Source: a virus (lineage: Duplodnaviria > Heunggongvirae > Uroviricota > Caudoviricetes). Taken from it: a stretch of DNA of 21,887 nucleotides. The position numbers were made by a program. The number at the start of each line of letters is the position of its first letter. Within the stretch, counting starts at the first letter, position 1. Below are positions 6,001-12,000 of this stretch, piece by piece. The DNA lies in IMG/VR virus record IMGVR_UViG_2534681878_000037. One strand, given 5' to 3'.

Positions 6001-9000
6001 CTTCAAATGCCACGGTATCCGCATGCAGCTCGTCGTGATGCTTTCTGCACAAAGGCAACACAAAAAGGTCATGCGCTTTTGTTCCCATTCCACCCTGACC
6101 GTGACCTATCAGGTGGTGGGGATCATCAGCGGGCTTTCCACAACATGCACACGGCTGTGTCTTAACCCAGCGCGTGTACTTTTCATTAACCCAGCGGCGA
6201 CGTTTTGGGCGTAACATAAAAGACTCCGGCGACTCCGGATCCACTTTCAGCGCCAGCACCTTTTTCGCCTTATCCTGGATGATGCTGGTGGCAGGAACCG
6301 AAGGCACAAGGTCACTTTCCCGGGTAACAGACGGCACAACAGGCTTCGGTAATCTCAGTGCCTTACGGGCTGCACTTTCCGGTAAGGCATCCGCCAGATC
6401 ATTACGAATCAGCCACCAGCACAGTTCCGGCATTGTCACAACGTGACTGTCATCAAAACCGAGATCCCGACGCACAACAGACAACACCCAGCGGGCACAG
6501 TTATCCGTTGCCATTGATTCCAGCCGTTCCGTGAACTGATCGCGCAGCTGGTTATCGCAGTGCCAGCACAGACGGATTGCACCCGGAGCGTGTCGCATTG
6601 TGGTCATGTTCTCGCTGTGCCAGTCGGAATGAGGCCACTGGCAGCCTTTTTCACGAAGTAACCAGCTTTCAAGACATTCCACGCCACCAGCACGACGGAT
6701 CACTGCCTCATTGCGGAACACGGCCCGAACGGCAGGATCATCCGCCAGCGGTTGTGATGCCGCCGGAACGGCACCACTGGCGAAAGATGAATAACGCTCC
6801 GGCTCAGGCTCCAGCAGGACACGCCCCTGCATAAACAGGGGCATCAGCTCTGAACCTGGCCTGAACAATACGATCCCCATACGCGGGGCAATTTCAGGGG
6901 TCAGTAGTGCTCTCACGGTCACCTCAATGAACGGTATCGAGCAGCTTTAACAGCTCAGGGAATCGGGATTCGAAGAAATGCGGCTGCGTCTCGCGCGGAT
7001 TTGCGGGACTGGTGATGTTCTTGCCGAACATGCAGCCTTTCGCTGTCAGCGACCAGAATTTTTTGATGTTGTTAATCGCGGTACGACTGTATCGTTCGCG
7101 CTGCTCGACGATCCCCAGCTTCACCATCTGGTGATATGCCTGATTAGCCGTCAGGCGGATACCATACTGTTTCAGCAGTGCACTCAGCGACAGCGTGGGG
7201 CGGCTTGAGCCATCAGGCGCATCAGCAGGAGCATCAATGGCATAGCGCGGTGCCAGATTCGGTAAGCCAACAGCCTCCTGAAGTTTCTGACAGGCTCCAA
7301 GCACTGAAGAGTTAGACAGATTTAACTCCCGGCGCATAAAGTCCAGCAGAATCACACCAGCCTGCATCTTGTCAGCAGCCTGTCCGGATAATTTTTCCGG
7401 TGCGCTGGTTACCATGTCGAAAGTACGGATCACCTTCAGATGGAATGACGGGCTGATCCACATTGCATAGGCATACACCAGTTCTTTGCAGACATACGTC
7501 CCCTGGTTATTTCCGCCACGAATAACGTTAACTGGCTCTATATTGACCGAGTTGCAAATCTGCAACTCGCTTATTAAACGCTCAGTTTGCTCATTGCGGA
7601 GCCAGAATGCAGGCTTATGCTTATCCAGAGAACCGGCAGCCCTGTGCAGATCGTTCAGGCTGTAACGACCATAAGCATCACGACGAACTTCAATACCATC
7701 AATGACCATCAGATTATTCATACTTCGTTTCTCCTCTTAATCAGGCGGCTGCACCCGCCGTTTTCTCGTACTTACTGATAGTGATCTCGACCTTCCCTTC
7801 CGGGATAACCGGTCCCCACTCCACCAGCATTCTTTTCACCTGACTGTCGTCTTCCCACACACCCGCGTGGGTCAGGGCGTCAAACAGCGCCTTGTTATAG
7901 TTGTCCAGATCGCGGATCCGGTTATCCGGAGGAAACAACACGATCTCCACTGAAGCAGGTGCCGACGTTGGTTTTGGCAGACGACGTAACTGCTCAACTA
8001 TTGCTGCACACGCCGCGCTCTGGAATTTGCGCCCCGCCGCGCTTATCAGGCTCTTACCTGCAAACGCCCCTTTGTTGGGGTGTCGCCAGTACGTGTTCAC
8101 GCTGGGCGGGAAAGGCAGAATCAGCTTCATACTTTCAGACCCCTCTCATGTAACCAGTGGGCTGCACGCAGCCTGGCGTTTTCCTCACCGGCAAGCAGTG
8201 AGCGGATAATCCCGACCGCCTCGCTGTCGTCGTCCTTCACCGCGGTATGAAGCGTTATCCCCCGGGCCACACCACGCTTTATCGTGATGACGCCTTTTTT
8301 CTCCAGTGCGCGAAGATGCTCCACCGCTGCATTCACTGAACGATATCCCAGCATGGTTGCCACCTCCTGATTGGTTGGCGGAAAGCCACGCTCTTTCTGG
8401 TAAGAAATCAGCATATCCAGCACCTGCTGCTGGCATTGAGTTAACGTCGTCATGCCGCCATCTCCCTGACCAGTTTTTCCGCCTGCTGGCGAACCTGCGC
8501 CAGAAAGGCCTCACCACATGCCTCAAGTTCATCGCGCCCGATGTAGCTGATTGCCGGTCCCTTCCAGGTCTTATCGAAAACAGCAATAGCACCAGCGAAG
8601 AAAGCGCCTGTCGGCACCTGCTTCTCATCCTTCGGGATAAACCAGGCAGGCAGTTCAAAACCAATACGCCCGCGAATAAAAGTAATATGGTCCGCATCTT
8701 CCGGCCACCACACTTCGCTGGTGGCAGCTTTGATCAGGAAAACATAGCGCCCCCCCTTATCACGCATGGCACTGGCATGTTTCATGATGTAACGCATGCC
8801 GGTGATGTATTGCCCCTCATGCTGACTGGCGCGGCTGTATGGGGGATTACCAAAGGCAGCCCCTTTAAGCTCCGCAAGACGTTCTGACCAGTCATGCGCC
8901 AGCGCGTTGTCTTCCGCCGTGTAATACGCAGCACATTTGGCGTTATCACCGTCAGTGAACAGATCCAGAACAAACGGGCCAAACAGGGTGTTAATTCCCC

Positions 9001-12000
9001 AGAAAATGTTGTCCGGCGTGCGCCACTGATCGCCCACTTCCTTCAGTTCATGGGCTGGTTTGTTCCGCAGTTCCACCAACGCCTGGCAATATTTATTACT
9101 CATTAAGCCCCCACGAAATTCCCTGACAGATACCACTCTTCACCCGATGCAGCGCGCTTGCTGCTTTTCCGTAAGCACCGCTCACGACGTGCCAGAAAAT
9201 TGTTTCGTTCTGGCTGGGAGTGGCTTTCACGGAATGCCGCCATCCACACCGTTGCAGCACGACGGTATAAGCCCCTGGACTCCAGTTCTTCAGCCTGGCG
9301 GGTCAGGCACAAAATCACACGGGGATCGTTAGTGCCGACATAGAAATTGCGCACAGGTCTGGTTTCACGAACTGGTTGTGGTTCCGGTTCCTGCGCTCTC
9401 TCAGTCAGGCGCGGGAAATGTCTGCGTGTATCTCCTTCACAACGGTGAGCCACACGCCCACTCTGACGTAACTTGCTTGCTGACTGCAGAACGCGCTGCC
9501 GTGAGTAACCTGTAAAAGCATCCGCAATGTCTCCGGAAGTACACCCCGGATGGGCTTCAATGAATTTCTGAACGTCATTTAACAGACTCATGATCACCCC
9601 CTGAATCCTGCCGGGATCTGGCTGTAGTCCACGTTGTCGTAACTGGATTTGAAGTACGGGTCTTCGCGTTTTTCGGTGTACGTGCTGACGGACGGCGATA
9701 AGCGCAGGGAAAGCTCATCCCATTTTTCCCGCAGCTTCGACGGGCTGAGCACGTTACGGCACCAGAACGGATCGCGGCTGACGCGGCTGTACATCTCGCA
9801 GATTTGTTTGTGAGTACGACCATCCTGCACACACATAAGGCGAATTTCGTTTGCCCAGGCTGTCCAGTTCGGTTCTTTGGGACGAACCACCTCGCCGTCA
9901 CATTCGGCGGCCTGCTCGTACAGGGCGATGATTTTTTTCCAGAGCCACTGTGCGCAGGTCAAATCATCCTGCGTTCCCCACTGGCGCTTTTTAGGGCTGA
10001 ATACAACCGCATCAGGATGGCGAGTTAAAAACTCCTGTTCAGCCGTCTGCGTGTCCGGTTGCGAAGCGTCCGGACGAGAAGTTTTTTTATCTGACGGATC
10101 ATGTTTTGATTTTACTGACGGATCCCCGCCAGATTCTGACGGGTGAAAACCCGCTTTTTTGCCAGATTTCGACGCATCAAATTTTGACTGGTCAGATTTT
10201 GATGCGTCAGATTTTGACGGGTCAGAATCTGACAGTTGAGAAAATGCCGCTGCCTGAAGCTTCGCAACGTTAAGCTGATAAACATTCGACGCATTGCGGT
10301 TACCCTGGCGACGCGCCTTACGCGTTAACCAGCCTTCTGCTTCCAGCCGTGCGATAGCCGTTCTGACGGTGCTCATCCCCGCGCCAATCTGGCGGGCAAT
10401 GGTTTCAATTGATGGCCAGCACACACCTTCGTCATTACTGAAATCAGCCAGGCGGGCCATAATTGCCACGCTGGATAACTTCATGCCTGACGCAGCGCAA
10501 CCATCCCATACATAGCCGGTTAATTTAGTGCTCATGACCGACCTCTATTTCCCTGAATTTACGACGAAACTGTTCGAGCGGGCTGAAGCACTCATGCTCA
10601 TAGCCTTCGCGGAGGTAGATAACCCGTTGTGTTTCCGGTTCCCAACGAATGACTCTGACGGGCACTCCGTAGTGATCTTTGAACCAGCGGTTAACTTGTT
10701 GCAAAGGACTGTCTCCTTCTGCCGGTTGAAATCACCCACAGCCCACTCTGCAAAGCTGTGGGTTACAATTTCCCTGTCACCTGGTACATTCACCGCATAG
10801 CAATACTCCACCTTCGCTTTTCCACCCGGTACAGGAAGCGCAATCAGTTGCGAGCGACGGTAGTGTGTTGTTAAACTGTTCATGCGTTAGTTTCTCCACA
10901 ACCAGAAGCAATCGACGCCACGACGCCCGGAGCTGCACACTCGCGGGCGTTACTCTTTTCCGGCGCACAAAAAACACGAAATAACAGTGTTAAATGCTCC
11001 TGCCACTTCGCCATTACTTGGTAGCTGTTCTCTTCGATTTGCTCACGCTCAGCCTGGTCAATAACTCCATCAGCAGTTGCCTTGCGTAAGTACTGGGAAT
11101 GCTTGCCAATCCATTCTATTGACTCCATCAGCCGCTGATTAATGTCACCATTGTCAATGTCATCAATGTCCACCAGCGGCACAAACACCCCATTACTACG
11201 ACGCGCTATCGCATCCGTTACATGCCTGGTACCACTGGCATCCTGTAAAACCATGGCCCACTCAAGTGGAAAAATTTGATCCCCACCGCTACGCAGTCTG
11301 TTATGCAATTGATCTTTCGCTGGGGTGATATCATCAGATTTATACAAACCAAGAATTTCCGCTGCTTCCTCATAGCCATGAGGTAAATCAGCAATCGTTC
11401 TTCGTATTGCTGCCACCAGCCATGCTGGTTGCTTATCAACTTTCCATTCAGGTTCTTTACCCACGGTTCATTCCTCGTTTCTGTGGTTACGTTTACGCAG
11501 TTGAACCGCTAACTTTTGAATAGCACTCAGGTAATCCATCATTTGGATTGGGGTAAATATCAGGACGCAGTTCATGAGGGGTCACGGACCAGTTTCCCAA
11601 CTCACAAAGTTGTAAAACCCGTTCTGACGGGACTTGATTGTTAATTACCCAATTGGCGACGGATTGAGTGGACTTAAAACCAAAGCGACGGGCTACTTCA
11701 GATAAAGACTTTCCCGCAGCCTTTACTGCTTTCTCTGTGTAGTTTTGAGATGACATACCTTTCTCCTCTGAAATTCAGAGGGATGATGCTACTTAAAATA
11801 GCAAATTGCAACTACTTAAAATAGAAATGACTAGCGTGTGTGATGTGAGTAATCTTCTACCTATGGTAGAAGAACAGAAGTATCCAGATTTCGCCAAGAG
11901 ACTAAACGAATTGATGACAATCAAAGGAATCTCTGTCACTCAACTCAAAAGTCTTGTGGGCGTTACATATGAAATGGCTCGTCGATACACAATCGGCGCA

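Follow-up and report, generated by a model that had tools for sequence, protein, structure and literature searches.

Gene content of the replication module

We analyzed a 21,887-nt stretch of viral DNA (Caudoviricetes; IMG/VR record IMGVR_UViG_2534681878_000037), here called the window, which is part of a Shiga-toxin-converting (Stx) lambdoid prophage. Our subject is a chain of five genes, all on the minus strand, whose stop and start codons meet within a few nucleotides of each other between positions 8127 and 10535: the gene for an O-like replication initiator (O), yfdN, a DNA adenine methyltransferase gene (dam), a gene for a protein with only a LexA DNA-binding domain (lexA-like) and the junction resolvase gene rusA (Table 1). 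A preliminary description of this DNA took the joints as a sign of tight translational coupling of the initiator with the four genes downstream, and went on to propose that the products of yfdN and lexA-like are likely stoichiometric partners of the replication/nin machinery rather than independent morons.

The genes follow the order cro, cII, orf112/DUF4222, O, yfdN, dam, lexA-like, rusA, kilA-N, DUF968 and Q. Searches against Pfam and PHROG recover the layout of a lambdoid replication-nin (pR) region, with divergent cI/cro, cII, an O-type initiator with internal candidate iterons, a junction resolvase and Q. A helicase or helicase loader of the P, DnaC or DnaB type was found neither among the cII-to-Q products nor among the ten largest open reading frames (ORFs) of the window on the pL side. 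In phiP27 and Edno5, on the other hand, the O genes are followed by DnaC and a helicase, or by P. In all probability, the five genes form the middle of a rightward delayed-early (pR) operon, with a replication module of the SfII/Stx2c-phage type, and the same high confidence extends jointly to the whole explanation developed below.

This locus is a textbook compact phage operon, and its module is already annotated in thousands of Escherichia coli and Shigella genomes and in isolated phages. Over positions 7700 to 10900, the block shares 97.6–98.1% identity with Shigella phage SfII and with several E. coli phages. Its stretch from rusA as far as the 3′ end of O reaches 98.5% with the Stx2a phages WGPS2 and 1447, and in E. 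coli O157 FDAARGOS_293 the block is 100% identical, with names on all five genes. Among 5426 complete E. coli genomes in RefSeq, 2744 match the block and 1078 cover at least 80% of it.

The initiator has an N-terminal HTH_36 winged helix, and its residues 131–277 are 35% identical to lambda O (tblastn); a sequence search against PDB chains returned weak MarR-type matches only. A 15-nt repeat inside the gene, which encodes a SKSDASKSD-like stretch of the protein, probably represents the iterons of the replication origin, as inside lambda O.

YfdN was listed in the preliminary description as a 164-aa unknown protein, yet it belongs to a named family: residues 98–149, in its C-terminal half, match PerC (PF06069) with 36.1 bits against a cut-off of 22.6, database homologues are named ‘PerC family transcriptional regulator’ or yfdN, and the literature treats YfdN of E. 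coli K-12 as the PerC homologue of that strain (PMC5931665). In the AlphaFold model (mean pLDDT 74.6), a winged helix (residues 1–60) is predicted to be joined through a disordered linker (63–84) to a three-helix domain (90–142). Foldseek found no replication-loader fold and returned generic ArsR/MarR/BlaI-type winged helices (best E = 2.9e-3), a weak negative for a model built on a 12-sequence alignment with a pTM of 0.40, and a sequence search against PDB chains gave no match.

The LexA-like protein aligns with the N-terminal domain of E. coli LexA (1LEA), its sole match among PDB chains, and mostly keeps the recognition helix of that domain (SVNAAVEHL versus SPNAAEEHL). Alignments with LexA stop by residue ∼90, no Peptidase_S24 match was found in the Pfam and PDB-chain searches, and the protein has a C-terminal extension of ∼40 residues. 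We conjecture that a protein of this sequence could bind LexA-like operators yet be uncleavable. The window holds one exact match to the SOS box CTGT-N8-ACAG, no more than expected by chance, and a literature search for phage proteins with only a LexA domain found nothing relevant. At the end of the chain, RusA is part of the conserved backbone described below, and a 19-nt spacer with the Shine–Dalgarno (SD) sequence AAGAGGAG separates rusA from kilA-N.

In rare database proteins, PerC is found fused to a Dam, an HTH_36 (O) or a RusA domain. They fall mostly in single-member clusters and are most likely deletions or frameshifts across the tight junctions, not real fusions.

Gene junctions and start codons

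The junction distances are +2, −1, −4 and −4 nt for O/yfdN, yfdN/dam, dam/lexA-like and lexA-like/rusA, respectively. Three of the four stop/start overlaps put forward in the preliminary description are present as claimed: TAATG at yfdN/dam is kept in 73 of 75 related loci, ATGA at dam/lexA-like in 70 of 70, and the −4 distance at lexA-like/rusA in all related loci tallied. The fourth, placed at 9594–9597, reads GTGA on the coding strand, which is neither ATGA nor TAATG, and forms an overlap only under a doubtful GTG start (GUG 9597–9595) that yields a 164-aa YfdN.

An alternative start at ATG 9591, two nucleotides behind the O stop codon, has more in its favor. The residues MSL are the invariant N-terminus of YfdN among aligned homologues with as little as 69% identity. 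The arrangement TGAnnATG or TAAnnATG is present in 84 of 85 related loci, and the two spacer bases are variable among them (TC 53 + 1, GC 24, TT 4, CC 1) while the proteins are 98–99% identical; in one locus the O stop is TAA, and the GTG is thereby lost. A Salmonella relative has a spacer of 1 nt, and there the GTG frame meets a stop at once. Pairing with the anti-SD sequence is also stronger for ATG 9591 (−10.7 kcal/mol) than for the GTG (−5.7 kcal/mol). For these reasons, comparison of the sequences better supports a 162-aa YfdN starting at ATG 9591, with O and yfdN abutting (TGA-tc-ATG) rather than overlapping, and the commonly annotated 164-aa start is probably wrong. Most database entries, NCBI-sourced ones included, call yfdN as 164 aa from GTG 9597.

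For dam, ATG 9103 (−8.4 kcal/mol) is preferred over GTG 9136, the start of the longest ORF (−3.8 kcal/mol). The tight chain also goes on upstream of O, with an ATGA at the cII stop and orf112 start and an 11-nt overlap of the DUF4222 gene with the start of O.

Stop/start overlaps in lambdoid early operons

How unusual such a chain appears depends on the baseline. Under a naive model that lets a start fall at any position up to 20 nt on either side of the stop, p is about 5e-4 for three of four junctions at −4 or −1. In the deposited annotation of SfII, however, 15 of 46 same-strand neighbor pairs lie at −4 or −1 and 25 of 46 within −8 to +10, and with the rest of the SfII genome as the baseline the probability of at least three in four rises to 0.09. 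The distances from O to Q in lambda are −4, −4, 73, −4, −4, −34, −4, −11, −4, −23 and −4 (7 of 11 at −4); these −4 overlaps link the partners O and P, yet they also link non-partners, namely P/ren, the ninB-to-ninI genes and ninI/Q. The phage Stx2a_1447, whose O is different and which has further genes upstream, is likewise tight all the way from cro to rusA, with an 8-nt, five 4-nt and a 1-nt overlap and a 2-nt gap. Since the chain extends upstream to cII, and since lambda and SfII are packed alike, the overlaps represent the usual way in which genes are packed in the early operon of a lambda-like prophage, which is a known property.

Ordinary packing is not the same as chance. Chance or arbitrary start choice, with no functional meaning, would suit the GTGA at 9594–9597, one of the four overlaps, which hangs on a doubtful start. 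The other three junctions, however, are near-invariant in at least 70 loci and kept in diverged genera, the chosen ATG starts have strong SDs where the alternative GTG 9136 has none, and in SfII and lambda no other spacing comes near the frequency of −4 or −1, so that we give this idea almost no credence.

Signals bearing on possible co-transcription and coupling

Each of the four downstream starts has an SD embedded in the end of the gene upstream. The anti-SD duplex energies are, in order, −10.7, −8.4, −8.2 and −8.3 kcal/mol, compared with a background that averages −2.9 kcal/mol, and they rank in the top 0.7–3.4% of operon positions; the SD of dam is GGGGG, 4 nt upstream of the start, and that of lexA-like is AGGGAG. 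A consensus scan of the minus strand inside 8127–10535 found neither a sigma-70-like promoter nor an intrinsic-terminator-like site, and the nearest promoter-like match lies in the rusA–kilA-N spacer. Folding of 80-nt windows at the four starts gave no hairpins sequestering the ribosome binding site beyond those of shuffled controls (z −0.98 to +1.39). Because the junctions fold no more strongly than the controls, there is no sign of a binding site that needs to be opened by translation of the gene upstream.

The four junctions have the geometry of termination–reinitiation pairs, with distances within about −8 to +10 nt and both SD and start in the end of the upstream gene. When overlapping pairs were put to the test in published work, 13 of 14 showed strict coupling (PMC6728339), and coupling falls off sharply past about 14–20 nt (PMC6728339, PMC10666635). 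Given the strong embedded SDs and the lack of promoter- or terminator-like sites in the block, co-transcription with coupling is plausible, and the geometry points to termination–reinitiation plus de novo initiation at the SDs as the most likely mode. To this extent the tight coupling proposed earlier is upheld by the distances, the SDs and the uninterrupted block, though as a generic argument from geometry only.

The same signals bear on whether yfdN, dam and lexA-like could be classical morons, each with its own promoter and terminator and expressed from the repressed prophage. Such genes would be expected to be present or absent between neighbors that adjoin each other in related phages, which is seen here. 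Genes of the PerC family and methylase genes are also able to act on the host, and YfdN is treated as the PerC homologue of K-12 (PMC5931665). However, junctions of +2 to −4 nt leave no room for such signals, and the scan of the coding strand returned no promoter- or terminator-like matches. The composition of the three genes (54.1–55.4% GC) equals that of the flanking genes (53.1–56.9%), unlike stxAB (38–42%), which is a true moron. We therefore consider moron status highly improbable, in line with the preliminary description, which had denied that yfdN and lexA-like are independent morons: neither a promoter or terminator of their own nor a compositional break was found.

Natural variants between O and rusA

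To see how these genes travel, we compared about 85 loci with yfdN and a second set of 80 loci with relatives of the Klebsiella-type O, and also looked at the gene neighborhoods of diverged YfdN proteins in Salmonella, Citrobacter and Hafnia. A profile search of genome contigs with the YfdN alignment recovered 5 loci only and was of little use.

The order O-yfdN-dam-lexA-rusA is found in 33 loci with an O of type A and in 25 loci with an O of type B, which is ∼30% identical. In the junction tally, 12 loci, SfIV among them, read O-yfdN-lexA-rusA without dam, and dam is also missing in further loci of the second set and in the Citrobacter lineage. A single locus in the tally reads O-yfdN-dam-rusA; lexA-like is missing in at least five loci, L015, L131, L132, L141 and L178 (four of them from the second set), and in the Salmonella lineage. 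The joints left by these differences are exact: the dam-less joint CTTAATGACG consists of the yfdN end, ATGA and the lexA-like body, and the lexA-less joint GGCATGAAGC of the dam end, ATGA and the rusA body. Exact joints of this kind indicate cassettes that are each bounded by a shared ATGA, and since the insertions and deletions of dam and lexA-like cut at this ATGA, a −1 or −4 junction is kept in all variants. L178 and L143, considered as E. coli-type loci with O and without yfdN, have ragged internal deletions and were excluded as clean yfdN cassette variants.

A more distant arrangement is seen in Klebsiella phage P7641 and 23 similar loci. Here orf112 and DUF4222 precede an O with 73% identity along its whole length, which overlaps by ATGA with the gene of an unrelated methylase; RusA (71% identical), DUF968 and Q come next. 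None of these 24 loci has yfdN, a PF05869 dam or lexA-like. The space between O and rusA is thus filled by yfdN, dam and lexA-like, by yfdN and lexA-like, by yfdN and dam, or by an unrelated methylase alone. From these sequences, the natural variants and the Klebsiella-type loci together, the region is a conserved backbone (O ... RusA-DUF968-Q) with a variable cassette slot between O and RusA, whose occupants are tightly joined.

These variants decide against the proposal that the overlaps enforce fixed ratios because O and the nin machinery have YfdN and the LexA-domain protein (and Dam) as stoichiometric partners. The proposal is not without grounds: short overlaps are 4.5-fold enriched among genes for heteromeric complexes in E. 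coli (PMC10666635), lambda O and P are true partners joined by an ATGA overlap, and yfdN occupies the position of P, always behind an O with a conserved 24-aa tail. Yet dam, lexA-like and yfdN are each missing from relatives that keep O and RusA, and SfIV, which is UV-induced, plaque-forming and lysogenizing, is viable without dam, its authors having noted the missing methylase (PMC3851460). O proteins that are ∼30% identical pair with YfdN proteins 98–100% identical, and O proteins 99% identical pair with YfdN 64% identical, so that only the 24-aa tail of O is constant while O bodies and yfdN alleles reassort freely. Nor are short distances a reliable mark of complexes, as only 30.4% of E. 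coli pairs at −8 to +10 nt encode complex subunits and about 70% do not (PMC10666635), and in lambda P/ren, the ninB-to-ninI genes and Q lie at −4 despite unrelated functions. The YfdN model, a predicted generic winged helix with a PerC domain, gives no replication-loader match. Partnership enforced by the overlaps is therefore very unlikely, and one should not conclude from a stop/start overlap in a phage that the proteins form a complex.

The three middle genes are instead best described as swappable accessory extras integrated in the early operon, not as fixed partners of the replication protein. A single transcript would carry all the genes, a ribosome ending one gene would reinitiate on the next, and de novo initiation at the SDs would add to this. 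The overlaps would then stem from compaction of the genome and from selection that favors functional joints where genes meet, and not from a fixed protein stoichiometry, with YfdN, Dam and the LexA-domain protein as accessory regulatory or DNA-modification genes riding on the replication operon.

Several points weigh against this explanation. The promoter scan used a crude sigma-70 consensus, which weak or activator-dependent promoters may escape, and the case for coupling at this locus is purely geometric. The comparison loci are mostly predicted prophages (uncultivated viral genomes, UViGs) of unknown viability, the isolated phages being SfII and SfIV and P7641 being a deposited phage genome. 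Lastly, yfdN stands directly after O down to 64% identity and in four genera, which is more conserved than a freely moving accessory gene needs to be.

The O tail and its pairing with yfdN

This constancy deserves a closer look. In all intact loci carrying yfdN, the gene follows O directly, with junctions of +1, +2 or −4 nt as called. Every yfdN-linked O, of types A, B and C, also ends in the same tail REDPYFKSSYDNVDYSQIPAGFRG (the last ∼24 codons), and the 24 residues are the same in Escherichia, Salmonella, Citrobacter and Hafnia, though the O bodies are only ∼30% identical. In contrast, the Klebsiella O, which is found without yfdN, has a diverged tail (...VDYSLPENSGFRT). The C-terminus of the tail, SQIPAGFRG, matches the C-terminus of E. 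coli DnaT at 8 of its 9 residues; a comparison of the whole O with DnaT found nothing alike beyond these 9 residues, and a recent paper on the preprimosome assigns no function to this tail.

One explanation is that YfdN is a dedicated accessory of a P-less O-type replication module and acts with the DnaT-like tail of O, helping for instance to recruit the helicase or to activate the origin transcriptionally. This would account for its constant place directly after O from 64% to 100% identity in four genera, and the O/yfdN junction alone, not the whole chain, would then reflect a functional partnership. As no P, DnaC or DnaB gene follows O, the tail might engage host helicase-loading factors, and if this role of YfdN were true, it would bear on host helicase loading by lambdoid phages that have no such gene. 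The association may also be plain linkage, with a recombination breakpoint about 75–100 nt inside the 3′ end of O, and we regard a dedicated role of YfdN as unlikely compared with that of an accessory gene in a cassette slot.

Other features of the window

The positions of the chain, its junctions and the neighboring genes are collected in Table 1. Between Q and stxA, a promoter-like site and a strong terminator-like hairpin with a T-run lie at the expected place of pR′ and tR′. The starts of the longest ORFs of Q (TTG 5924, −1.5 kcal/mol) and DUF968 (GTG 6922, +0.3 kcal/mol) have essentially no SD, and for this reason the true starts probably lie a few codons further downstream.

Upstream of O, the widely annotated orf112 shares 160 nt with the DUF4222 gene, which is read in another frame. 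Against Klebsiella phage P7641, this shared stretch has 34 substitutions, of which 26 are at codon position 3 of DUF4222, which is position 2 of orf112. Only the DUF4222 frame therefore looks selected, and the C-terminal half of orf112, judged by this pattern, is probably not conserved coding sequence.

An IS3-family insertion sequence lies in the leftward early region, adjoining a ParA-like gene. No tRNA genes were found anywhere in the window.

Table 1. Coordinates of the five-gene chain, its junctions and other features of the window
Feature	Position	Strand	Details
stxB	3742–4011	minus	Downstream of Q
stxA	4021–4977	minus	Downstream of Q
Terminator-like hairpin	5429–5410	minus	Strong, with T-run
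Promoter-like site	5487–5460	minus	
Q antiterminator	5475–5924	minus	
DUF968	5927–6922	minus	
KilA-N	6924–7721	minus	
RusA Holliday-junction resolvase	7741–8130	minus	129 aa; PF05866 6.1e-15
lexA-like/rusA junction	8127–8130	minus	ATGA; stop TGA 8129–8127 over ATG 8130–8128
LexA DNA-binding-domain-only protein	8127–8453	minus	108 aa; PF01726 2.9e-19, 69 bits, residues 1–65
dam/lexA-like junction	8450–8453	minus	ATGA; stop TGA 8452–8450 over ATG 8453–8451
Phage N6-adenine DNA methyltransferase (dam)	8450–9103	minus	217 aa; PF05869 Dam 8.5e-46
yfdN/dam junction	9101–9105	minus	TAATG; stop TAA 9105–9103 and ATG 9103–9101 have one base in common
YfdN/PerC-family protein	9103–9591	minus	162 aa; phrog_1324 4.6e-78
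O/yfdN junction	9589–9602	minus	SD AGGGGGU 9602–9596, UGA 9596–9594, spacer 9593–9592, AUG 9591–9589
O tail	9594–9668	minus	Last ∼24 codons of O
O-like replication initiator	9594–10535	minus	313 aa; HTH_36 4.2e-11 (Pfam); phrog_391 ‘replication initiation O-like’ 1.3e-134
15-nt repeat inside O	10163–10226		4.3 copies; Tandem Repeats Finder, period 15, 77% matches
DUF4222/O overlap	10525–10535	minus	11 nt
DUF4222 gene	10525–10704	minus	TTG start, SD AAGGAG
orf112/DUF4222 overlap	10545–10704	minus	160 nt
orf112	10545–10883	minus	phrog_1170
cII/orf112 junction	10880–10883	minus	ATGA
CII-like	10880–11464	minus	
cro	11493–11756	minus	
ParA-like gene	12802–13752		Adjoins IS3-family element
IS3-family insertion sequence	13758–14971	plus	orfA 13758–14084, orfB 14081–14971
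SOS box match	19724–19739		CTGT-N8-ACAG

Comparison with known systems

The closest relatives are the modules of SfII, SfIV, the Stx2a/Stx2c phages (WGPS2, 1447) and the yfdN locus of CPS-53 in K-12, with 97.6–98.5% nucleotide identity over the matched part. The modules of SfII and of the Stx2a/Stx2c phages have the same five genes and junctions as here, whereas SfIV is without dam; in the Stx2a phages the O body is only ∼30% identical, with just the last ∼24–33 residues kept.

At a greater distance, the locus resembles the O-P-ren-ninB...ninI-Q region of lambda in its operon position and order (cro, cII, O, small genes, junction resolvase, Q), in the candidate origin iterons inside O, in the chain of 4-nt stop/start overlaps and in a homologous C-terminal region of O. 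It differs in what follows O, which here is a PerC-family gene, a Dam methylase gene and a LexA-domain gene with no P, DnaC or DnaB type gene, in having RusA in place of NinG/Rap, and in an O with an HTH_36-type N-terminus and the DnaT-like tail SQIPAGFRG.

Individual proteins also depart from their namesakes. Like the PerC/Pch regulators of enteropathogenic and enterohemorrhagic E. coli (EPEC/EHEC), the 162-aa YfdN matches PF06069 in its C-terminal half, but it has an extra predicted N-terminal winged helix and disordered linker and is encoded in a replication operon. Among the Pch proteins themselves, those of group 1 activate ler, while PchD and PchE of groups 2/3 have little or no effect (PMC5931665). 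The 108-aa LexA-like protein shares the N-terminal winged-helix DNA-binding domain with the LexA repressor and does not have its C-terminal S24 peptidase/self-cleavage domain.

The junctions, finally, resemble the gene pairs studied by Huber et al. 2019 and 2023, which are co-directional, lie at −4, −1 and +2 nt and have an upstream gene whose final ∼15 nt contain an SD (PMC6728339, PMC10666635). Those pairs are chromosomal and enriched for complex subunits, whereas the genes joined here are interchangeable phage cassettes whose coupling we infer from their geometry.

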